Assembly: GCA_951406725.2 (NCBI GenBank)
Contig: OX597823.1
Span: 26,536,001 to 26,600,000, forward strand
Direction of reading: 5' to 3'
Source: Octopus vulgaris
Taxonomy: Eukaryota
DNA: 64,000 nt
Position 1 is the first letter of the stretch; each line of letters opens with the position of its first letter. This document shows positions 13,446-63,820 of the stretch, one piece after another. The position numbers and the translations under genes are program-made. The notes beneath the pieces were generated by a model, which had not been told where the DNA came from, made no database searches, and saw only the letters and a list, made by a program, of their open reading frames with translations.

Positions 13446-13534
<89 letters not shown>

Positions 13535-13572
13535 TGTACACGCACACACGCGTGCGCGCGCATATATATATA

Positions 13573-13812
13573 TTCTTTTACTCTTTTACTTGTTTCAGTC
13601 ATTTGCCTGCCCTCACGTTGAAGCAACTAATCGATCCAATGACTTATTCTTTGTAAGCGTAATACTTATTCTATCGGTCTCTTTTGTCGAACCGCCAATG
13701 TATAGGGACGGAAAAACTCCAAGATCGGTTGTCAAGTGACTATGGCGGGGGAGGACAAACACAGACACACAAACATATACGCACACATACACACATGTAT
13801 ACACACACACAG

Positions 13813-13845
<33 letters not shown>

Positions 13846-14174
13846 TACGACGAGCTTCTTTCAGTTTCCGTCTACCAAATCCACTCACATGGCTTTGGAC
13901 GGCCCGAGGCTATAGTAGAAGTCACTTGCCCAAGGTGCCACGTAGTGGGATTGATCCCGGAACCATGTGGTTCGTACGCAAGCTACTTATCACACAGCTA
14001 CTCCTACGCCTGGCTTACAAATATATATATATACGCCAGGCTTCTTTCAGTTTCCGTCTACCGAATCCACTCACAAGGCTTTGGTCAGCCTAAGGCTATA
14101 TTAGAAGACACTTGCCCAAGGTTCCACGCAGTGGGACTGAACCCGGAACCATGTGGTTGGGAAGCAAGCTTCTT
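13573..14174 (-). mobile_element. SINE family 1: full copy 13573-14012 plus an interrupted copy 14030-14174 whose head resumes at 16880-16918
   Basis: SINE sequence is collinear across the A and B insertions. Confidence 0.85.
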
Positions 14175-14655
14175 TATTTCATTATATTTGCTATAAAGGC
14201 AGTACATAGCGTAAAGTAGCTTTGCGGGCTGGACAAGGACATTAATGAAATGAATGATAATGAAAGAAAGATGATAAGGATGGGAGAAGACAAGAAGCGC
14301 CCGCCGACTTCTGCTTCTCTAAAACATTGCTCTTTAAAACCAAACACAAAACGAGGTATTAAACCTCTTACAACTTTTCAATTTTTGGACTTAACAGTCC
14401 ATTACAAACATCAACATAGTTCAATAATTACATATAATATATATAAATACAATACATGAAGCCCTCCTCTCAGACCAGGCTTACGCTTCCCTTAGGTAAT
14501 GCTCCAGCTCTAGGTCGGGGCCCCAGAAGGCGTATCTAAACATGTCCTTTGAGAAGGTGTTCATTACCCTGACCATTGCGACATCCGATATGATCTTCGT
14601 AGTCACCTGCGAAAGCCACTCCTCGTCTCTGTCCAAGGCATGGGCTCCTCTCTCC
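14175..14655 (-). mobile_element. 5'-truncated ORF1-only non-LTR element (copy A), inserted in a SINE head
   Basis: Flanked by the direct repeat gggaagcaagcttctt (14159-14174 and 14656-14671); its 3' UTR matches 63290-63436; residual frame GAHALDRDEEW...YLREA is distantly similar to the C-terminus of the copy B ORF. Confidence 0.75.
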
Positions 14656-14671: not shown

Positions 14672-16879
14672 TATTTTATCAAATTGGCCATGGAGGTCTT
14701 ACAATCACAGGTTCTTTTCTTACATAAAAATAAAAAAGTCAATCAAACATCAAAAATACATTATCACTTTTTGAGGTCTCTTTCTTTCTTTTGTTATCTT
14801 ACCGTTTTTACCAATATATAATATATATATATATTTATGTGAATTTGAAGGTAAAATATCTAGCCGCCTGTACAGCAGACCACGTTGACAGACGGGAGTT
14901 CAGAAAGAAGGCGAAGTGCCTATTATCAAATGTTTGTGTCACACAGTGCCACGATTTATAGCTCACCATCAACATCGCTTGTGCCCACATCCTCCTCCAT
15001 CCTCAACGCCTCATTCAAGATCAGAGCGGGTTCCGTGTCAGCGTTGCCCGGGTACAAGAGATATTTCTCATTGAGCCCCTTCAGCCTAAACGTCACGTCA
15101 AACGTTATGACCTCCACAGCTATATGCGGAGGCCATTCGGGATCCTGTGTGAAGGCTAAAGGTGCTCCCTTATGGTGCTTTTCCACCACCTTTTCAACCT
15201 CTCCGCCTCTATAGAAGAAGAAGATCAATAATTCGTCTTCCTCCGGGGGAGGTATATCTAATTCTTCCGTTGGCGGCACAGTTCTCGCCAACGGTGTCTC
15301 TTCTCCTGCCGGTGGCACAACCCCAACCGATGTAGTTCCGGGACATTCCGGTACTATGTCACCGAATGCCGGCAATGTCCCATTTCCTCTTCTTCTTTTT
15401 TTTCTTTTCAACTGAGGAAAGATGTGTCTCCTCCGTGACCGGGAGATTCGCCTCCCCATCCTCATCCTTAGGATCCTTCGGTGAGCACCCATTGTTGCTC
15501 ACCTTCTTCCTCTTGCGGCCCCTGTTTGAGGAGTCCTCTGCCTCCTCGGCCGCCTTCATTCCCTCCTCTACAGAGGTCTCACTCAACTGCTCCGGGACCT
15601 TATTTTGTTCCTGGGGACAATTTTTCACTGATAAAACCTGGTGGGGTGACTCTGATGAATCACCGGATACCTGCACCCGGCCATTTAAAAAAAAATCTGG
15701 AAAAACCAGATTGGCTGATTGAGTCCAAAGGGTCAAAACAGCTTTTGACCCAACCCAATCAGCTGCAGGAAAAACTTTCACATTAAGGAGCTTGGCTCCG
15801 CTGCCACCCAGATCCCGGCGGATAGTCTCCTCTATCCACTCGGGTTTTATCCCGGGTGGCAACCTGCAGACCCAAGCTTTCGTCAACCTCCTCCCACAAT
15901 ACGTGGGAAGAAACAAAATTTCCTCGCCCTCCAAGGGCTGACTCGCAAATTTGCGAGCCTCTTCAGGGGTATCAAATAGCAACCACACCGTTGCGTATTT
16001 GACACCCCTGGAAATGAATTTAATTGTTGGCAAATACTCCGCCAACTCCTTTTCAATTGCCGTCTTTTCGAATAGGGCGATGGTGTCGAGTGACTTGGAG
16101 TAGGTTCTCAACACCACCGTCCTATCTTCACGGTCTTTCAACCACTTTTTAGGCGGTACAACCTCCCACTCCAAAACTTTGTCCGTTTTCATTGCCATAT
16201 TTCCCCCTTTTTTTTAAACGGTTCGAAAATAATTCAAAATAAAACTTAAAAAGGGAGAAGAAAAAAGAAATCAAAAGAAAGTCACAACAAAATGGAAAGG
16301 AGAAAAGGAAACAATTCACAAAAAAGAGAAAGTCAAATAAAGTTTAGAAGAAAGAAACAATAGTTCAGAAACACAGCAAAGAAATCTTCCGGCCATTCGG
16401 TACTCCCGGCCTAGGTTGAACCCGGAACGCTACAACTGGAACACAACTTCCACAAAAACTGGTATACAAATTGTTCAATCTTCGGAGGCAAAGACACTCC
16501 CCCAAACAGCAGTTCTCACAATTATCTTAAAATTCTTCAAAAAGTGAACAAATTTTTAGTAGGCATAATACACCCCCAAGCAACAATTCTCATAATTAAG
16601 TGAGAAAAATATTCACTCAACATAAACTACTAACTAGGAAGACGAATACGCGCCCAAACAAAAATTCTCACAATTATGCAGGCAGAACCAGAATTCTGAA
16701 TCCAGTAGGACTTCTTGCCTGTATATAAAAAAAAAATTCTCAACAAAAATTCCCACTGGACCCCAAAAACAGAACCTTACCTTACAGTGGAGCTTCAACA
16801 TTTTTCAATTCGAAACGGTTTTAAAAGCACGTCCCACCGCTTTGGTCCCAAACATCACAATTACTCGCACATGCGCAGT
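14672..16879 (-). mobile_element. ORF1-only (HAL1-like, probably Tx1-derived) non-LTR element, copy B
   Basis: TSD ggaagcaagcttctt (14657-14671 and 16880-16894); about 680-nt 5' UTR; frameshifted ORF spanning 16198-14956; about 280-nt 3' region ending at aataaa; no RT or endonuclease sequence. Confidence 0.8.
14956..16198 (-). pseudogene. Frameshifted ORF1-like protein of copy B
   Basis: Two overlapping frames (279 aa and 178 aa); both have homologous segments in copy C (PPKKWLK, VVLRTYS, FASQPLEG, FLPTYCG, FYRGGEVEK, FTQDPEWPP); RRM-like ORF1 identity is inferred. Confidence 0.65.
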
Positions 16880-17001
16880 GGAAGCAAGCTTCTTACCACA
16901 CAGCCACGCCTGCGCCTATATATTAAATAACCACCGAATATTTTCTTGCATTCCTATTGATGAACTTAGTAAAATAACGTATACTTTTTATTTTTATTCA
17001 G

Positions 17002-17379: not shown

Positions 17380-18519
17380 GTAAAATAATATGTGACAATT
17401 ATTCGGTAGCCAAGATAAAACTCAGAGTTTTATCTTGGCTACCGAATAATTGTCACATATTATTTTACACATAAATTTCCTCTATTTACATAATATTGAG
17501 GTCTCTTTCTTTCTTTTGTTATCTTCCCGTTTTTACCAATATATATGATATAATATATATATTTATGTGAATTTGAAGGTAAGATACTTTAGTCTCAAAT
17601 CATGACACAAAACCAGTAATTTCAGTGGAGGGCTAAGTCGATTAGGTCGACCCCAGTGCTCCACTGGTCCTAATTTTATCGATCACGAAAAGATGAAACG
17701 CAAAGTCGATCTCGGTGGCATTTGAACTCAGAACTCAAAGCTTATGAACTTCATTAGCTTACTGCTGTTTCCAGTATCATTTGCGGTGGACTCATAGTTG
17801 AGTGTCTGAATCATACCTTACTGCTTCATCAAAGCCTCAAACATGAAGTGTTCACATTTATTGAGAAACTAGCTTACAGTGGTACACAAATCTCAACCGA
17901 ACCATGTGTTAAATTCTTCATAGACTGGCACAGTAGACCGTAATTCGACATCTCGAGACTCTAATTGAGAGAAGCGAATTTAGAAAGATACGTGGCTGCA
18001 TGGTGTCTATCTTTGTATCACTGCAGAGTATCTGGAATGAAAATCTACTGAAAAATTACCTGCTAAGCGTCAACCGCATGAGACGATATACCGATATTGT
18101 TTTACAGTCTAGATATCTGTATTCCAACTTCAATTTACTTTCCTCTGTAGCTGATTTAAAATGAACTTCAAACCAAACTAATTTTTATCTAATATTTATA
18201 GCAAATATTTGTCTGTATTTTTGTCAGTTTCCACTGTTTTCTTTTCCAATTTTTACCAAATGTAATGTTATTAATATACCTTTATACAGTTTGTAGCTAT
18301 ATGATGCATTGTAATGATGATACACAACAATGTTGAAACAGACCTGATTGAAAATATACACGAATAAATATTGTTGTTGAAGCACAAGTAAATTAATTTA
18401 TAAAAATTCCATCAACAGCTCTCTTCTTTTCATATAAACTAGGCTTTAAGAAAGAAATGAGCTTTGTCACATTCTCTCGCTCTTTCTTTCTCTTTCTCCA
18501 CCTCTCTCTCCATATATAT

Positions 18520-20700
18520 ATGCATATTATATTTTTTATCAGTTTCAGCTCAAAGCTGTGCCCATGCTGGGGCACCGCCGTTTTGTTACTATTATTATTG
18601 ACAACCTCCTTTAATATATGGTATTTGGTGAATAAGGAGTTTGATTTCGCTACCCTCATTTGCACCTCCTGCCGGGAGGTAGGTTCATCTGGGACTCTCG
18701 CCAAGAAAAAATCCAGTTTTGATTTGAAAACACCTACATCACCTTTGTGTAGGTTCCTCAGGCTCTTTGGGAGAATATTAAAAAGCTGTGGGCCTCTGAA
18801 ACTCAGGCTGTTGCAGTAACTGGTCCTGAAGCGCTGTGGCATTGCTGGGATATTTGGCACTGTGCAGTGGCGATGCGTTCTAGCATTTGTGTAGTTTTCA
18901 ATGCCAAAATTTGGTACAATCCCTTCCAGGAGCTTCCAGATGTATATTACTACATATCTCTCCCGCCTTCGCTCCAGAGTCTTAGCTCTTTCAGCCTATC
19001 CCAGTAGCTGAGCTGTTGCAATGAGACGATCTTCTTTGTGAAGCTTCACTGAATTGCTTCAAGGTCCGCTGTTAATTTTACACTGTGGGGTGACCATAGC
19101 TGGGAGCAATAATCCAGGTGGCTGAGGACGAATGACCTCCAGAGGACCATCATGGTTTCCTTCTCTCTGGTTCTGAACGTTTTCAAGATCCATTCAGCCA
19201 GTCGTCTGCACTTTGTCGCAATCCTGGTACCGTGCACTTGGAAAGAGGTATCATCACTCATGTCGATACCCAGGTCCCGCACTGATTTAGGCTCTGGGAT
19301 TGTAATCCCCCGTGGACCAGTGCACCCTGTAAGTTTAAATTCAGTTTTGGACGCTGGTAGCGCAGGACTTGGAATTTTTCAGTATTAAGCATATTATTGT
19401 CCTCAGCCGATCTGTAAACTGAGTTCAACTCCTGATGCAGGTGTGCAACATCGCTGGGATTCTGTACTTTCTGTGAGACTTTCGTATCGTCTGTGTAGCT
19501 TGCAAGGGTTCTTGAGGGCATATCTGAGAGGGCCACTACAAAAAGCAGTGGTCCCGAGACAGTGCTCTGTGGAACACCGCTCACTATTTGTGTTTTCTTT
19601 GAGGTGGCTCCATTGGCCACTGCTGCCTGAATTCTATCTTTCAGAAAGTCATGTAACCACTCTCCAAGTTTTCCAGCTTTACCGAGATCACGCAGTTTGT
19701 GGCATATCACCATGATCCACTTTATCAAAAGCTTTTGCCAGGTCAAGGTATATTATGTCCACATTTGAGTTGTTGAGTAACTACGTCAACATCCAGTCAC
19801 AGTGCTGTAAGAGCTGGGTCAGGTAGCACCTACCTGGTCGAAAGCCATGCTGGGTATCACTCGGCAAGTTGTTTTCTTCAAGGAATGAGATTAGGTTCCC
19901 TCTCACTATCCGTTCCATGAGTTTGTTAATGTGTGAAGTCAGAGAGATAGGCCTTTAGTTTTTGGCATCTGCTCCGCTTCCCCCTTTATGGATTGGGCAT
20001 ATTATTCACTCCTTCAGTTTGCTTGGCAGCCTGCCATTTGCAAGAAAGCTCTGGAAGATAATCTGTTGTGGTTTCACCAGGGTACGCTTACACAATTTGA
20101 GGTCGATTGCTGGGAAACTATCAGGACCAGCAGTTGAGTTTGCGTCCACCTATTCTATGGCTAGTAACATCGTAACTGTATCGCTGGTTATAGGCGAGAC
20201 GGCAAAGAAATCCACTGGTTCATTCACTTGTCTGTGTTCCAACAGGGTGGTAAAGACACTTTTGAACTGGTCATTCAGTACCTCACTGATATTGGTTGGA
20301 CTATCTCTGAGGGAGTCATCCTTTTGGAAGAGGGATCCTATTTTGCCGCGTACTGAGGCTGTTTCTTTGGCATAATAACTTAATGTTTTTTTTATAACCC
20401 AGGCTTCTTTGTCTGCTCTCTCTCCCTCTCATAGGATTGTTGCATGCTTCAATCTCCGTCAGTGTTGTTTTTAGGCGGGATCTTTCAGTACTTTTGGGAT
20501 GTTGGTTGAAGCGATTTGCAACCTTCGTCCATCGTCCCATGAAGATCTTTCTCTCCCTTGGAATCTTGTTCCTTTCTGTGTTGACCTTGTACTCTGGGAC
20601 ACATCTCTGGCATATGGTTTGCATAAAAGACATGAAATATTCTAGTTTCATGCCAATGTCTGGTTTTCCTGCATGTTTTGTTCCAACGTGTATCCTGTTT
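18520..20700 (-). mobile_element. CR1-group LINE, 5'-truncated and decayed
   Basis: RT fragments SGVPQSTVSGPLLF, YTDDTK, DYCSQLWSP and C-terminal FLARVPDEP; many stops and frameshifts. Confidence 0.88.
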
Positions 20701-28785: not shown

Positions 28786-30692
28786 AATACAATTTACTTT
28801 ACAAAATTGGTCCTTCATCTAGTACAAATTATTGTAGAAATAAATTCAACCATTCAATTTGGGGGAGAACTTAGTTATGAAGTATTTTTCCATATTTTTC
28901 CTGAAGGAGGTGTCATTCTTTGGGCATTTATAGAAGGGAAAGATCTTAAATTTTCCTTCTCCACATGTATCTAGGTGTTTACTCAGTGGAATCTTTCGCA
29001 GTTCCTCCTGTCGGACATGTTGTCGGTGAATTCTGGCTCGTTGGAATAAAGAATTTCCAGTTTCACCTATATAATTCTCTTTGCGTGTGGGGCAGGTTAT
29101 GCAGTATATTACGTTCCGCGTCTTGCAGTTCATGTCTGCATTTACTTTGAATATGTGACCACTCTTAAATTTTATTTGTTTGTTTCCCTCTATGTATTTG
29201 TAGGTGGGGTTACTGCATATCCCACATCTACCATCTCCGCACTCTTTTACAAAGAATTCGGTTTTACTCTTTGCTGAGAATTTCTTGTTAGTTGTTTCTT
29301 CAGGTTTTTGTCTTGGCGTTTACTGTTTTTTATTCAATATTTGTTTAATATGTTTCCCATTTTGGTGCTTTGTAGGACTATTGGTAAGTTTGAATGTATG
29401 ATTTGAAACATGTTGGTAACTCCAGGGTTGTGTGTGTTTATGAAAGGGATGATGTTCTCTTTGTTTTTCGTTTTTGGAGTTCTGAGTTGTGTGATGTCCA
29501 GTTTCATTGCTCTTGAGATTCAATTTTTTAATAATTTGAGTGGGTATTTTTGTTCTAGTAAGAAGTTTTTAAGTTCATTTAGTCTCATTTGGCGTGTTTG
29601 TGAGTCGGTTACTATGCTGCAAATGCATCTTGCCATACTATATGGAATGTTTCTTTTTATGTGAGATGGGTAGCAGGAGTAGAAATTTAGATATTGGTGT
29701 GCGTCATTTCTTTTGTAGTTGATGTCTGTTGTGACGATGGAGTTGTGTATCTTGATGTTGATGTCTAGGAAGGGAAGTTCGTTGTGGCTGGTATTTATCG
29801 CGAAGTTGATAGATAGGTGCAGTGTGTTGAGGATGTTGTGGAATGTTCGTAGATCTGCTGATCTGTTCCAAAAGATGAAGCAGTAATCGAGGTAGCGTTT
29901 CCACTTTTCTTGATGTCTTCTCTGAAGTCGTGTTCGAGGACTTTCCCTATTTCATCGAATAGTTTGTTCTCAAGGAAACCCATCACCAGGTTGGCATATG
30001 AAGGCGCGAATTTTGTACCCATGGCGTGCACTTTATCTGTCGGTATGTCTTGTTAAATGAGAATGTGTTTTCTTCAAGTATTAATTGGGTGGCTTTGGTG
30101 ATAAAGTCTGGTTTGAAACGTTTATCTATGAGTTCCCTGTATTTTTCTATCCATTGTTTTATCGCTGCCAGACCCAGGATGTGTGGTATGTTCGTGTATA
30201 AGTTTGTGACATCGAAGCTTGCAAGTATGGTGTTTTCCGGAACTGTATTTGGAATGTGTGTGTCATCCCTTATGTAGCTTGGTATCAGTGGGCATAAAGG
30301 TTTGAGGAGTACATCTATGAAGTAGCTTAGTTGTTGTGTTGGCGCCTGGGGCCCTGCCACTATTGGTCTCATTGTGAGACCAATTCTTATATAATGGTTC
30401 CTCTGTTCCTTTATGACTCTGTATTTCAGAGCTTTTATGAACTTTGGGTAATCCATAAAAGTTGCTTTCTTTGGTTCTTGAGTTGCATAAATAGTCTTTC
30501 TCCTTGTCTGTAAAGGATTCCTGGTATTCATTGACTAATGTTCCAATTTTTTTAAATTTTAATTTTCCTTCAAGAAAAATATGGAAAAATACTTCATAAC
30601 AAAGTTTTCCCCCAAATTGAATGGCTGAAAATATTTCTATAATAATTTGTACTAGATGAAGAAACAATTTTGTAAAGTAAGTTGTATTAAAC
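28782..30692 (-). mobile_element. Penelope-like element (Neptune-like), decayed, with an inverted terminal arm
   Basis: RT motifs MRPIVAG, ASFDVTNLYTNIP and MGTKFAPSYANLVMG; GIY-YIG NCKTRNVIYCITC..YIGETG; 30566-30692 is the reverse complement of 28782-28908. Confidence 0.9.
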
Positions 30693-33509: not shown

Positions 33510-34322
33510 ATGAGGAATGTATCACCACTATGCCAACCACAAGAACGACAACAACACATCCAGCACTACATATTCCGAATGCAACGCTCCGGATACACAC
33601 AAGACGATAGAGTCAGGGTGTACAAAGGAGCGAAAGCTAGATTCGAACGCATTCTAGGGAACGACGAAAACGGTATATGCCCCCTGTACCGCAACAAGTT
33701 CTGGAATAGGTTAGAGAGGGACACCAACAAAAAGATGAGAAGCGTTACTTGGTACGATAACAGGAGATTTCACGGAGTGATGTTCGTTGACGCCACACCT
33801 AAGAACGAGCTAAGTAAGGCATTCAAGAAAGTCCTGCACACTACGGGCCTAAAAGTTAAAGTTGTAGAAAAGACAGGTAGGACTATCAAATCGGCATTAT
33901 GCAGATCATATCCATTTGATAGAATCACCTGTCAGAGTAATTGTGCAGTGTGTTCGACAAATCCACACGTAAATTGTAAAACCAAGGGCACTGTATACCA
34001 GATTAAGTGCCAGGAGGGAGCTTGCGCGGCTAACCCAGAGTCATACATAGGTGAGACCTCTAGAAGCATCAATGATAGGTTCAAAGAACACCTGGACAAC
34101 TACATTGAAAGGAAGCCAAACTCCATCTTCTACCAACATGCTGTAGACTGCCACAAGGGATCCTTAGGGGAGCTTAAGTTGAACATCTTATCAACACATC
34201 CCACCGATGCAATGTTGAGACAGGTCACAGAAGCTGTTTGTATACAAGAATACAAACCTACTCTCAACCGAAAGTCCGAATGGAATAACATCCAGATCCC
34301 ATTCAGAAGGACTATTCTATAA
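33510..34322 (+). CDS. PLE ORF C-terminal part: RT thumb/linker, Cys-rich linker and GIY-YIG endonuclease (5'-truncated)
   Basis: Open 270-aa frame: MQRSGY, PLYR, FVDATP, C..C..C, VYQIKC..YIGETSR..RFKEH..RQVTEAV..LNRKSEW. Confidence 0.88.
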   Translation: MRNVSPLCQPQERQQHIQHYIFRMQRSGYTQDDRVRVYKGAKARFERILGNDENGICPLYRNKFWNRLERDTNKKMRSVTWYDNRRFHGVMFVDATPKNELSKAFKKVLHTTGLKVKVVEKTGRTIKSALCRSYPFDRITCQSNCAVCSTNPHVNCKTKGTVYQIKCQEGACAANPESYIGETSRSINDRFKEHLDNYIERKPNSIFYQHAVDCHKGSLGELKLNILSTHPTDAMLRQVTEAVCIQEYKPTLNRKSEWNNIQIPFRRTIL

Positions 34323-35566: not shown

Positions 35567-35640
<74 letters not shown>

Positions 35641-35644
<4 letters not shown>

Positions 35645-38353
35645 ATCAAAATAAAATAAAAACATGATGCGAAGGATTCAGCGGTACATATGTTTCGGGC
35701 CTTTATTAGACAGATTTATAACAATGCATAATGTATGTCTGTGGCCTTCTTCAGCCGCGCACAACAGCTTCCGCAAGGACATGTGTTACATCAAAAATTC
35801 TTGGTTGGGGATGCAAATCCTCTCATTCACGTACGACATAATGCGGCAGCAGCATAGAATTGAAGCGTCCATCTCTTTCTTCTCTCAATGTAGAATGAGG
35901 AAAATTGGATGTTGAGGTAATGTAAATAAATAAATACATATATAGAGGTGAGGATGGAGGGGCGAGAGTTCGGGACGAGGGATAAAAAATGTATAAAAAG
36001 TGTAAGTATAGAATAATATAAAAATGTAGAGGATAAAGATATAAAGAGTTGTAAGGAGATGTAAAGGGGTATAAAGAAATATAAAGAAATGTAAATAAAT
36101 GTAAAGGCATAAGGTTATAAAGTAAAAATAGAAATAGAAGTAAAAATAGAAATAAAAGTAAAAAAATCTGATAAACCCATGATAAAAGTGTAAAATGTAA
36201 AGGCATAAGGTTATAAAGTAAAAATAGAAATAGAAGTAAAAATAGAAATAAAAGTAAAAAAATCTGATAAAACCATGATAAAAGTGTAAAAGAATGTAAA
36301 GATAAGGGATGTATAGAGGTTACGGACCAAGCATGGTGGTCAGGAGATTGGTAAAATTTAGTTGTAGAATTGTCAGTAAATCAACAGTAAATCAACAGTT
36401 TCGTCTGGGGACTTAATGCCTTGTAAATCAGAGCTGATGAGCATTTAATCTGGTTCCTTGAATTAAATGGACTTCTAGTACATACATATCATCATGGATA
36501 CATACACCCACATACACGCGTACATATACGCCTCCAAGCATATAAGCATACACACGCACTCGCGTGTAAACACGTACATAAACACACACGCACCCACACG
36601 CACGCGCGTACACACACATACATACACCAGAATATCCGCATATATACACGGACATTACGCGCGTACACGCTCACATGTATATACGCGCGCCCATCACTAC
36701 ATACACACACGTATATGCCCACGCCATGTGCGTGTGTGTGTGTGTGTGTGGGTGTGTGTATGTGCATATACGGTTCCCTGCATTTTCCCCCTATATATAC
36801 AAATTTTGTCTCCCATATATGACTTCTTTTCCCTAAATATTTCTTCTCCTACACCCATATCCTCCCTATGTAGTCTCTTTAATTCCCTATATCTATACCC
36901 TTTCACATTTCTAACTCAGATGTTGAACGCACACCGCCAAACTCCACTTCCCACCCTTCCAATTTTCAGTTCCCCCCGCCCGCCCCTACGTTTAACACAC
37001 ACCTCTAACTTTCAACCACCTCCATCTCATGTTAAACTTTACAAAATTATATTTTTATCTTATTTTATTTTATTTCTATTTTTACTTTTATTTTTACTTT
37101 TATCCTACTTCCATTTATTTTTAATTTTATTTCTACTTCCATTTATTCTCATTCTCTCTGTGTGTGTATGTGAGTGTATATGTGCACGCACATACGGACA
37201 CACAGCCGTGTGTGCGTGCGCGTATTGACATGAGTACGGGATTCTTTACTTACGTTCTTATACACATCCTTTAATATCTTATACCTGGACCTAGAGGCGT
37301 GGGCATATACGTGTGTGTATGTAGTGATGGGCGCGCGTATATACATGTGAGCGTGTACGCGCGTAATGTCCGTGTATATATGCGGATATTCTGGTGTATG
37401 TATGTTTGTGTACGCGCGTGCGTGTGGGTGCGTGTGTGTTTATGTACGTGTTTACACGCGAGTGCGTGTGTATGCTTATATGCTTGGAGGCGTATATGTA
37501 CGCGTGTATGTGGGTGTATGTATCCATGATGATATGTATGTACTAGAAGTCCATTTAATTCAAGGAACCAGATTAAATGCTCATCAGCTCTGATTTACAA
37601 GGCATTAAGTCCCCAGACGAAACTGTTGATTTACTGTTGATTTACTGACAATTCTACAACTAAATTTTACCAATCCCCTGACCACCATGCTTGGTCCGTA
37701 ACCTCTATACATCCCTTATCTTTACATTCTTTTACACTTTTATCATGGTTTTATCAGATTTTTTCTACTTTTATTTCTATTTTTACTTCTATTTCTATTT
37801 TTACTTTATAACCTTATGCCTTTACATTTATTTACATTTCTTTATATTTCTTTATACCCCCTTTACATCTCCTTACAACTCTTTATATCTTTATCCTCTA
37901 CATTTTTATATTATTCTATACTTACACTTTTTATACATTTTTTATCCCTCGTCCCGAACTCTCGCCCCTCCATCCTCACCTCTATATATGTATTTATTTA
38001 TTTACATTACCTCAACATCCAATTTTCCTCATTCTACATTGAGAGAAGAAAGAGATGGACGCTTCAATTCTATGCTGCTGCCGCATTATGTCGTACGTGA
38101 ATGAGAGAATTTTCATCCCCAACCAAGAATTTTTGATGTAACACATGTCCTTGCGGAAGCTGTTGTGCGCGGCTGAAGAAGGCCACAGACATACATTATG
38201 CATTGTTATAAATCTGTCTAATAAAGGCCCGAAACATATGTACCGCTGAATCCTTCGCATCATGTTTTTATTTTATTTTGATCAATTTACTCCACCACCT
38301 ACACCACCAAACGGTATACACAGGTGCTTATAATTATCAAGTACTCACCCCGA

Positions 38354-38442: not shown

Positions 38443-38841
38443 TACTCTTTTACTTGTTTCAGTCATTTGACTGCGGCCATGCTGGAGCACCGCCTTTAGT
38501 CGAGCAACTCGACCCCGGGACTTATTCTCTGTAAGCCCAGTACTTATTCTATCGGTCTCTTTTGCCGAACCGCTAAGGGACGGGGACGTAAACACACCAG
38601 CATCGGTTGTCAAGCAATGCTACGGGGACAAACACAGACACACAAACACACACATATATATATATATACATACATATATACGACGGGCTTCTTTCAGCTT
38701 CCGTCTACCAAATCCACTCACAAGGCTTTGGTCGGCCCGAGGCTATAGTAGAAGACACTTGCCCAAGGTGCCACGCAGTGGGACTGAAGCCGGAACCATG
38801 TGGTTAGTAAGCAAGCTACTTACCACACAGCCACTCCTGCG

Positions 38842-38845
<4 letters not shown>
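38443..38845 (-). mobile_element. SINE family 1, full length
   Basis: Head-to-tail match with the other copies. Confidence 0.9.
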
Positions 38846-60060: not shown

Positions 60061-61302
60061 CGAGGGGTGTATGAAACGTTTTGAGCCTAACCTAGAAACG
60101 GGGCTGCTAGGTAGCTGAAACAATTTTTTTCTGGTAAGTACAGTCTTTTCAGTGTATTCAAGCTCATTTTCATGATACTGTTATTTTAATTTTTTGTTTG
60201 TTGCAGACTTTTAAATAAACAAGTGTTGAGGTTACATGGAAAATGGAGAAAACTGAGTATCGTGCTGTCATAAAGTACCTTCATTTGAAAGGCATGGCTC
60301 CATCAGAAATCCATGAAGATATGTTGAGATCCTTAACAGACAATGCTCCTTCATATGCAACAGTCAAACGCTGGGTAAATGAATTCCAGCATGGCAGGGA
60401 GAGTGTGGAAGATGATCCCAGACCAGGGAGACCTCCAACTGCAACCATCGAGGACAACGTTGACCTTGCTCTTGGTATGATAATGCAAGATCGTCGAATA
60501 TCATGTCATCAGATAGCCGAGAGACTGGGCATCTCAGCTGAAAGAGCAGACAACAATGTAACAAAAGAACTTGGGTTCTCAAAGGTTTCTGCAAGGTGGG
60601 TCCCTCGCCTTTTGACTCCTGAACATAAATGCACTTTGTTCACGAGCAATCTAGAACTGTTTGAAACCAATGAAGAGAATTTTATTGCTTGTTTTATTAC
60701 TATAGACGAAAGTTGGGTTCATCACTACCAGCCTGAAACCAAAGAACAATCAAAGCAGTGGAAGCACACATCTTCTCCTACCCCAAAGAAGGCCAGGGTC
60801 ATTCCTTCAGCTGGCAAGGACATGGCGTCAGGTTTTTTCTGATTCTCAAGGTGTCTTGCTGATCGATTATCTTGGAAAGGGTCACACCATGACAGGACTG
60901 TATTATTCTCAGTTACTGAAACGCCTCCGGGAAGCTATCAAAGAAAAAAGGCCGGAGGAGTTCTTTTTCATCACGACAATGCTCCAGCCCACACCTCGTG
61001 ATTGTGGATATGAACTTGTTCTCCATCCACTTTATTCACCAGACTTAGCCCCCACTGACTTTCATCTATTCCCCAAAATGAAAAAAGCCCTGGCTGGTCG
61101 CCATTTTACCAATGATACAGATGCTGTAGGAAGTTTCTTGGAGTCTCAAACAAAAGAGTTCCTCTACGCCAGGATAATGGCACTTCAGTACCGCTGGAGA
61201 AAGTGTTCAGCCATCGAGGGGGACTATGTTGAAAAATAAATCATCAGAAGTCTTGTACTGTTTTGTATTTTTTGGGGCTCAAGACTTTTCATACACTCCT
61301 CG
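60061..61302 (+). mobile_element. mariner DNA transposon (irritans-like), decayed
   Basis: TIRs cgaggggtgtatgaaa / tttcatacactcctcg with TA flanks; WVPRLLT, TIDESW and YSPDLAPTDFHLF in split ORFs 60243-60842 and 60856-61239. Confidence 0.95.
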
Positions 61303-61448: not shown

Positions 61449-61497
61449 AAATAGAATAAGGCGCAGAAGTGGCGGTGTGGTAAGTAGCTTGCTTACC

Positions 61498-63436
61498 TCA
61501 TTGTGCATGAGCGAGACAGAATTGTGTTTGACACCGAAGCGGCAAGACGTGCTTTTGAAGACGTCTTAAATTGAAGACTTTTGAAACTTAGCAGCAAGGT
61601 AAGACTTTCTTCTGTCTTGTGAGAGCCTGTTGTAATTCGCGATTATTTTTAAAAACAAGAAGTCCTCACTAGACTGTAGTCTACCTGAGGTTGAGTGAAA
61701 ATATTTATTCACTTAATTGTGAAAATATTTATTCATTTAATTGTGAAAATTATTGGTTTGGTGGGCGTATACTGCCAAAAATTTTTTTGTCTGAAAATAG
61801 TGTTTCAACAATATTGTTCCTGTCAAGGAGTACCTAGAAGAAAATTGAAATGATTTTTAACTGTTTTACAATTGTGTTAAAATTTTGGTCTGGAGTACCA
61901 AGTAGCCTTTGCTGTATTTTGAACTGTTGCTCTCTATTTTTTAAAAAAACTCTTTATTGAACTGTTAATTTTTTTCTCTCCTTCCTTTTTGTTTGGACTT
62001 TTTTCCTCTTCCTTCTTTTTCTTTAATTATCTTATATTTTAACGACTGTATTTTTGAACTCTTTAAAAAAACAACAAAAAAAACATGGCAAATAACAATG
62101 AAAAGTTGGTGAAGTAGGAAATTACACCACCCAAAAAATGGTTAAAAGAACTTGAAAGTAAGACGGTGGTTTTGAGGACCTACTCTAGGACCCTCGACGC
62201 CATTGCCGTTTTCAGGAAAAAAGCTGGCAGAATTTAAGCCAGCGATTAAGTTTATCACTCGGGGGGGGGGGGGGTCAAATACGCAACCGTGTGGCCCAGA
62301 AGTGGCCCGTGAATTTGCAAGTCAGCCCCTGGAGGGCAATGAAATTTTCTTTCTTCCCACTTATTGTGGAAAGAGTCTGACGAGGGCTTGGGTTTGCGGC
62401 TAGCCACCCGGATTTCATTCCCAGTGGATAGGAGATACTATCAACCGGGGCCTGGGTGGCAGTACCACCAAGCTCCTCAGCGTAAATATTCTGCCTGCAG
62501 CTGACTGGGAGGGGTAAGTCGGAGACATGATGCCGGAGTGTCACGGAGCATCGTCGGTTGTGCCACCGGAGGGGGGAGACACCATTGGCGGGAATTGTGC
62601 CGCCAACGGTAAAATTGACCCCCTAGGACCCGGAATACGATGAACTGTTGATCTTCTTTTATAGAGGCGGAGAGGTGGAAAAGCTAGTGAAAGAACACTA
62701 CGAGGGAATACCTTTGGTCTTCACACAGGACCCAGAATGGCCTCCTTAGATTGCTGTGGAGGTCATAACGTTGCGCGTGTTTATAAAGCTGGAGGGACTA
62801 AAAGAGGAATATCGCTCGTGGCCGGGTGACGCCAACTCGGAGCCCGCCTTGATTTTAAAGGAAGCATGGGCTATGGGGGAGTACACGGACACAAGCGATG
62901 ATGAGGTGGAAAATTGACAAGAGGTTGAAAAGCCTCAGCGTTATAATGTGTAAGAGGGTCAGTAAATGTACTAGTGTTGATTGTATATTGAATATTTCAT
63001 TGTATGTTATTGCATGTTGTTGACTATTAAGTCCAATAATTGTAAGAACTGTAGTGAGAGGTTCAATACCTCGTTGAGGTGGAAAAATTGACAAGAGGTT
63101 GAAAAGCCTCAGCGTTATAATGTGTAAGAGGCTCAGCGCCTCATTTGTAAATGAACTAGCGTTGATTGTATATTGAATATTTTTTGCATATTAATATTTG
63201 TAATGGACTATAAAGTCCAATAATTGCAAAAACTGTTGTGAGAGGTTCAATTCCTCGTTTTGTTTATTCTGTTGAAAAAAGAAAAGAACAATGTCTTAGA
63301 GAAGCAGAAAATCGGCGGGCGTTTTTTGCCTTCTCTTATCAATAGCAACCTTATTTCATCATTCACCTCATCAATGTATATGTCCATCCCACAAGCTATT
63401 CTATGTAATGACTTTATGGCAAATTTCAATGAAATA
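61498..63436 (+). mobile_element. ORF1-only non-LTR element, copy C, inserted in a SINE head
   Basis: TSD aagtagcttgcttacc (61482-61497) and aagtagttacttacc (63437-63451); 5' end matches copy B and 3' end matches copy A; decayed ORF about 62085-62917; internal tandem duplication of about 170 bp at 62903-63258. Confidence 0.8.
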
Positions 63437-63820
63437 AAGTAGTTACTTACCAACCATATGATTCCGGGTTCATTCCCACTGCATGGCACCTTAGGCAAGT
63501 GTCTTCTACTATAGCCTCGGGCCGACCAAAACCTTGTGAGTGGATTTGGTAAACGGAGACTGAAAGAAGCCCGTCGTACATATATATATATGTATGTGTG
63601 TGTATATGTTTGTGTGTCTATGTTTGTCCCCCCAACATCACTTGACGACCGATGGTTGTGTGTTTACGTCCCTGTCACTTAGCGGTTCAGCAAAAGTGAC
63701 CGATAGAGTAAGTACTAGGCGTCCAAAGAATAAGTCCCGGGGTCGATGTGCTCGGCTAAAGGCGGTGCTCCATCATGGCCGCAGTCAAATGACTAAAACA
63801 AGTAAAAGAGTAAAGAGTAA
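63437..63820 (+). mobile_element. SINE family 1 body; its head lies at 61459-61497, split off by copy C
   Basis: Collinear with intact copies once 61498-63436 and one TSD copy are removed. Confidence 0.88.

Follow-up and report, generated by a model that had tools for sequence, protein, structure and literature searches.

The octopus DNA under study, a stretch of 64 kb referred to here as the window, contains at 61498-63436 on the + strand a decayed ORF1-only non-LTR retrotransposon of 1939 nt, element C, which lies inside the head of a tRNA-type SINE. The 5' piece of the host SINE head, with an A-box-like motif, is found upstream of the insertion (61460-61481, +) and is followed by the upstream copy of the TSD, AAGTAGCTTGCTTACC (61482-61497, +; 16 bp, T...A variant). 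C is co-terminal at its 5' end with a second element, B (see below), and consists of a 5' UTR that is 75.0% identical to the 5' UTR of B (61498-62084, +), an ORF1 remnant with an RRM region and a C-terminal region (62085-62917, +), and an A-like 3' UTR whose final AAATA is joined to the AAG of the target (62918-63436, +). The downstream TSD copy, AAGTAG-TTACTTACC (63437-63451, +), is 15 nt long, with one deletion and one substitution, and the remaining host SINE, i.e., a B-box-like motif, the body and the tail, extends over 63452-63817 (+). At the end of the ORF and the beginning of the 3' UTR a segment of ~175 nt is duplicated in tandem (62902-63259, +; 83% alike). The ORF1 of C carries frameshifts and four stops (62115, 62401, 62624 and 62747), and an internal deletion of ~380 nt relative to B, near 62515-62519, takes out the knuckle and the linker described below; C itself is dead. 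Self-comparison gave no LTR or TIR. Just upstream of its SINE, at 60243-61239, lie two broken transposase ORFs (199 and 116 aa), which, judging from their motifs, are of the mariner type.

The second locus is found 44.5 kb away on the - strand, in agreement with the opposite orientation, the distance of about 45 kb and the length of about 1.9 kb that the initial annotation had given for C. Here the head of the SINE with the first TSD copy (16880-16916, -; head proper 16916-16895; A...C variant; TSD AAGAAGCTTGCTTCC at 16894-16880) is followed by element B (14672-16879, -; 2208 nt), by a TSD copy, AAGAAGCTTGCTTCCC (14671-14656, -), and by element A (14175-14655, -; 481 nt), which is 5'-truncated, stands in tandem with B and has its own TSD. 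A third TSD copy, again AAGAAGCTTGCTTCCC (14174-14159, -), is included in the segment that contains the body of the SINE hosting B and A (14026-14174, -). The ORF1 of B lies at 16198-15359 (-), with a frameshifted C-terminal frame that extends to 14956. The 3' region of B is a mosaic: it includes an 88-nt piece of another repeat (14771-14858, -; 94.5% to 17496-17586) and, by eye, resembles the other elements over the last ~35 nt only. The 88-nt piece is part of a hairpin-forming repeat fragment at 17400-17590, which presumably resembles a Penelope-type end. The SINE hosting A and B stops at a TA microsatellite, where the next SINE copy adjoins with its start near 14010 (13489-14174); the DNA of the window is rich in microsatellites.

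The host has the characters of a tRNA-derived SINE, namely A and B boxes at tRNA spacing, a length of ~400 nt, an interspersed distribution and several copies. With a box consensus, an A-box-like motif is found at 11 and a B-box-like motif at 53-54 in all three heads tested. Judging from length, the family may be OR1 (from OK, OR1 and OR2). The window contains 13 copies of the SINE head, two of which are interrupted, both at one base, 22 nt into the SINE and at a site that spans two variant positions; the remaining 11 run without interruption over the 100-154 nt aligned. For a SINE of ~410 nt, the length used in this estimate, the chance of two loci hitting one site is about 1/410. Counted from the GG of the A box, the duplicated 16 nt would be equivalent to positions 21-36 of a tRNA, which lie between the two boxes, and the triplet equivalent to the anticodon differs by SINE copy (ACC, CCC or ACG). 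ARAGORN called no tRNA gene in the SINE head, and no tRNA was present among 16 weak Rfam matches. For the 79-nt head a long hairpin that contains the target is predicted (-27.2 kcal/mol); an imperfect palindrome is also visible around the target, at 38765-38843 and in other SINE heads. Among the matches listed, the A variant of the SINE occurs also in hundreds of contigs with uninterrupted heads. The target pattern of the SINE was not found in metagenome, genome or viral contigs, nor the 3' junction pattern of the element in metagenome or viral contigs, these collections being other than animal genomes.

In A, B and C alike (3/3), the 3' end reads AAATA followed directly by the AAG of the target, without poly(A), and TSDs of 15-16 bp flank each copy in the variant that matches its own local SINE host, T...A at C and A...C at B and A. 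Junctions and TSDs thus confirm what had been read from the DNA at the outset: C cuts the SINE at the same nucleotide as A and B, the terminal aataaa of all three copies runs into the target aag with no poly(A), and the hosts are different SINE variants. The description of C as B-like at its 5' end and A-like at its 3' end also holds, since over aligned columns the two ORF parts of C are 76.7% and 77.4% identical to those of B, close to the value given above for the 5' UTR, and the last ~245 nt are 82.9% identical to A; the last ~35 nt are similar in A, B and C. The broken and internally deleted ORF of C, the tandem duplication of ~175 nt in its 3' UTR and the 88-nt repeat piece in B are additions to the initial annotation. 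The TSDs, the fixed 3' end, the truncation of A and the absence of terminal repeats are those of non-LTR retrotransposons. By tblastn with all the proteins fetched, no relative of ORF1 was found elsewhere in the window.

As originally proposed, C is without ORF2: about 519 nt of UTR follow its stop codon (62915-62917), and a six-frame scan of A, B and C with APE and RT motifs gave no credible match, the one loose match, with one mismatch, falling inside the ORF1 frame of C. An ORF1 without ORF2, the HAL1-like condition, is therefore found in C, with weaker evidence for A and B. In B the 3' end is a mosaic, so the missing ORF2 could be secondary. A has an open frame of 57 codons that weakly matches the C-terminal part of ORF1 (16/5000 and 26/5000 shuffles in global alignment, 42/2000 in local alignment) and that aligns, best of the six frames, to the end of the B and C ORF1. 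On this ground the frame is preferably read as an ORF1 C-terminus, and its reading as the C-terminus of an ORF2, suggested by a resemblance, is disfavoured. The idea of several ORF1-only subfamilies, advanced in the initial annotation, is thus borne out in part: it is solid for the C type and weaker for A, truncated and with its weak ORF1 match, and for B with its 3' mosaic.

The protein closest to the B ORF is LOC115225585 of Octopus sinensis (78% identity, E 3.5e-84). A search of the full library returned 51 relatives of ORF1 at E<=0.001, and seven of the ten more distant relatives looked up are named octopus proteins, so that on protein similarity, too, the DNA very likely comes from an octopus; 38 sequences were aligned, i.e., the B ORF, the O. 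sinensis homologue and 36 others. The AF2 model of the homologue has a pLDDT of 78.7, its Foldseek matches are tandem-RRM proteins, and VIA-align assigns residues 14-101 to one RRM and residues 101-185 to another (Z 7-8.8, no more than typical for RRM-like folds). The zf-CCHC match in the homologue is weak (E 0.058); among 20 relatives scanned, the CCHC knuckle is over the Pfam curated cut-off in two and weaker in three more. B has lost the knuckle, and in C it falls within the deletion. Atlas neighbours of ORF1 belong to CCHC and ZCCHC3-RBD clusters (0.90-0.92). ORF1 is therefore predicted to be of type I, with two RRMs and a CCHC knuckle, the combination being found on the 78%-identical homologue and on the relatives, not on B and C themselves. 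In the available part of the source, an ORF1p with RRM and CCHC is of type I and fits the Tx1 clade, and it is also present in the Jockey group (PMC5203782). Downstream of the knuckle a basic linker leads to a C-terminal region of ~90 aa, which is under selection (dN/dS 0.32), has no match in Pfam and has Atlas matches below 0.9 only; its AF2 model is unusable (pLDDT 40), and a search with it gave none among 281 candidates, which is weak evidence. In the O. sinensis gene model P0002, 47 aa of ORF1, with 89-91% identity to B, are joined to a region that resembles an integrase; the fusion is probably a chimera of annotation, and the model indicates that a close relative of B exists elsewhere.

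Of 1366 aligned sites, 325 (23.8%) differ between B and C, compared with 23 of 170 (13.5%) between their host SINEs (Fisher p=0.0025), and at synonymous sites the contrast is 46% vs. 13.5% host divergence (p=3e-11). Over 262 gap-free codons dS is 0.71, dN 0.21 and pS 0.46, with differences distributed 55/41/98 over the codon positions; dN/dS, a measure that the initial annotation had called for, is 0.29 (bootstrap 0.19-0.41), post-insertion decay included. The terminal branches of the SINE hosts measure 0.05-0.07 vs. the dS of 0.71 between B and C. The B and C lineages thus separated as coding elements under selection, well before they entered their present hosts. Identity between the two host SINEs is 86.5%, less than the 90.6% and 91.2% that they share with the free copy at 38821, and the TSD copies match within a locus and differ between loci. 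A comparison of element and SINE trees, also proposed initially, speaks neither for nor against independence, as the SINE tree is star-like, with none of its eight inner branches well supported, and has no power; for this reason distances were used. Independent insertion of A, B and C is supported by these comparisons, and for A the truncation together with its own TSD provides the same argument that Kojima used, in the available part of that study, against hitchhiking of SINEU-3 (PMC4494074).

Relatives of the element were compared in public sequencing contigs from four runs with three organism labels, at a likeness of 80%. The three larger runs cover the element in all its bins, and in two of these the summed depth is roughly 900-40,000 vs. 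45-58 for the contigs nearly identical to C; the summed depth, which is a rough guide and not a copy number, shows that relatives are many. At the four stop positions of C a sense base accounts for at least 95% of the depth in each of the three larger runs, and the four stops are therefore private to C. In the relatives, contigs stop at 62511-62515 or start at 62517 and continue there into sequence that does not align, as would be expected if the deletion of ~380 nt is private to C. A contig at depth 403, about 9 times that of the C-like contigs (45-46), joins the end of the ORF (62796-62903) to the 3' UTR (63241-63386), and a second contig, from another run and at depth 37 (about 4 times the C-like contigs), also goes from the ORF end straight to the 3' UTR, so that the ORF1-to-UTR layout is not peculiar to C. 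These high-depth contigs and the dN/dS of 0.29 are what an amplified ORF1-only form with a selected ORF1, as in HAL1, would show. As for junctions, the 5' end of one copy (89% alike) adjoins the same SINE head, with 28 letters on the SINE side, and a joint between SINE head 61495 and element 62799, such as a 5'-truncated insertion would give, is present in two runs, with 26 letters and marked "between: not known"; the two junctions fall below the bridging bars (31 and 30) and are no more than hints. The loose contig ends considered are 24 of a list that holds 1155 more, mostly SINE contigs. The bar for site specificity set by Kojima is the presence of the target in >20% of flanks genome-wide; in the window and the contigs, as distinct from the genome, the target is found at the SINE site in all three window copies and in the two sub-threshold contig junctions.

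Being without ORF2, A, B and C need a partner. A profile search for longer or fused proteins (1092-3115 aa) gave no ORF2 partner among 7837 candidates, which is weak evidence, and since the partner was not found we infer its clade, its endonuclease and the nick sites. Most plausibly it is a Tx1-clade LINE that recognises the shared tail. Eighty L1-Tx1 families are annotated in O. vulgaris, 13 of them recently active, and their targets go unmentioned in the available part of the source (PMC13282606). Other retroelement fragments noticed by eye in the window comprise a GIY-YIG-like ORF and RT pieces, at 33510-34322, 29983-30531 and 18393-19713. Two nested inverted repeats of 432 and 469 nt with 99-100% identity (35638-36725 / 37296-38289) are either a recent inverted duplication or an assembly artefact.

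The reading that we favour, and hold to be probable, is that the elements form a non-autonomous family comparable to HAL1 and move by means of the ORF2p of an unseen Tx1-type partner, an enzyme that nicks the SINE site and inserts the elements by TPRT. An internal promoter would drive the synthesis of element RNA, the ORF1p of the element would coat this RNA, a role that would account for the selection on ORF1, and the partner ORF2p would recognise the ~35-nt tail common to A, B and C. The shared 3' junction suggests that the endonuclease would nick at CTT|ACC on the bottom strand, in the interval separating the A box of the SINE from its B box; the TT|A step is like that cut by APE nucleases. 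The freed TT would pair either with the AA that ends the terminal AATAAA or with target sequence reached by read-through, and in both cases no poly(A) would be copied; given the same number of A residues at all three junctions, priming on a long poly(A) is a poorer fit than precise pairing or read-through. A nick of the top strand 14-16 nt downstream would then make the duplication and restore the target, so that a tandem insertion such as B+A becomes possible. By splitting the A box from the B box, each insertion would silence that SINE copy.

Among the alternatives, the evolved target could be a genuine tRNA gene, or a different conserved gene for a small RNA, of which the SINE heads are look-alikes. 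The head does keep tRNA spacing (boxes at 11 and 53-54), tRNA-targeting non-LTR families exist, as stated in the available part of the source (PMC4640811), and with a dS of 0.71 the B and C lineages far exceed the host copies (0.05-0.07) in age, although a single recent enzyme could serve two old non-autonomous lineages. This explanation is nonetheless unlikely, as the three insertions in the window and the two weak junctions are all in the SINE, and the head is not tRNA-like to ARAGORN or Rfam, so that real tRNA genes may differ at the target. It is less likely still that the site is a structural hot spot, where the palindrome exposes TT|A to an ordinary L1-type endonuclease while the family inserts widely otherwise. 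The long predicted hairpin of the 79-nt head (-27.2 kcal/mol) would suit such an explanation, and so would the abundance of the SINE, with 13 copies in 64 kb and SINEs forming 11.6% of the O. vulgaris genome in the available part of the source (PMC13282606); against it, all three copies of the family sit at one base with no ORF1 relative elsewhere in the window, and no unrelated element is found at the site in the 11 other heads.

There are two further explanations. If targeting is real, the copies might be deletion derivatives of autonomous elements and not an amplifying ORF1-only family, given that C is deleted and duplicated, B has a 3' mosaic with another repeat and A is truncated; but A and C run from the stop codon directly into homologous 3' UTRs, and the same ORF-to-UTR link is present in a contig at ~9x the depth of the C-like contigs and in another from a second run, which makes this account quite improbable. 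The initial annotation had set repeated targeting against the amplification of one composite unit. That a single SINE with its insert was amplified by duplication or co-retrotransposition is hardly credible: the same site is used at both loci and the SINE tree is without resolution, but synonymous divergence (46%) is far beyond that of the hosts (13.5%) at a dN/dS of 0.29, the TSDs agree inside a locus but not from one locus to the other, A has a TSD of its own and is truncated, and for each host there is a free copy that resembles it more than the other host does. Repeated targeting is thus supported by the divergence of the elements in excess of that of the hosts, by dN/dS and by locus-specific TSDs.

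The preferred reading, an ORF1-only family mobilised in trans by a Tx1-type enzyme, could be part of a broader picture that is possible but doubtful, in which octopuses carry ORF1-only lineages that are long-lived, antedate the SINE copies in which they sit and live as obligate parasites on the dominant SINE of the host, with their own selected RNA-binding protein, swapped 3' UTRs and a borrowed endonuclease cutting between the A and B boxes. The insertions would disable Pol III templates and the target variants would record an arms race with three tiers, i.e., the SINE, an autonomous SINE-targeting LINE and the ORF1-only passenger. If the preferred reading is true, the promoter region of a SINE joins the targets that LINEs hit at a single nucleotide, an invertebrate has a site-specific ORF1-only passenger, and the partner endonuclease is a new natural site-specific integrator. 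Tests would also become possible of why selection maintains ORF1 in non-autonomous LINEs and of how APE endonucleases shift from one target to another.

In the literature compared, which leaves Repbase and the Zenodo O. vulgaris library outside, no octopus element is described as targeting a SINE or as having ORF1 only, and the combined behaviours are likewise not described; the octopus families may already be in either of these libraries. Targeting of transposons by Tx1 elements and ORF1-only LINE derivatives are each known, and their combination is likely new. The sources cited in what follows are drawn on for their available parts. Tx1-Mar/SINEU-3 of crocodilians and Tx1L in Tx1D of Xenopus likewise use a fixed site inside an abundant transposon, and the Tx1-Mar/SINEU-3 system shares with the octopus elements a 16-bp TSD, tandem copies that sandwich a TSD, a non-autonomous passenger with the target of its partner, and trans-mobilisation (PMC4494074). 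The targets in these systems are, however, DNA transposons, and SINEU has no coding capacity and ends in poly(A) (PMC4494074); the octopus passenger sits in the head of a tRNA-type SINE, encodes ORF1 and is without poly(A). HAL1 is similarly a non-autonomous LINE derivative that codes for ORF1p only; it comprises derivatives of mammalian L1 for which the part of the source available mentions no sequence-specific target, unlike the octopus elements with their RRM and CCHC ORF1 and fixed site (PMC5753468). The nearest geometric parallel is Mutsu, listed alongside the U2-targeting Keno, whose insertions lie ~20 nt into the 5S rRNA genes, a multicopy Pol III unit, as counted from the 5' end, at variant positions (PMC5340908, PMC4494074). 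Mutsu has two ORFs, a functional-gene target and subfamilies matched to target variants (PMC5340908, PMC4494074), while in octopus the tail type shared by A and C is found in both SINE variants.
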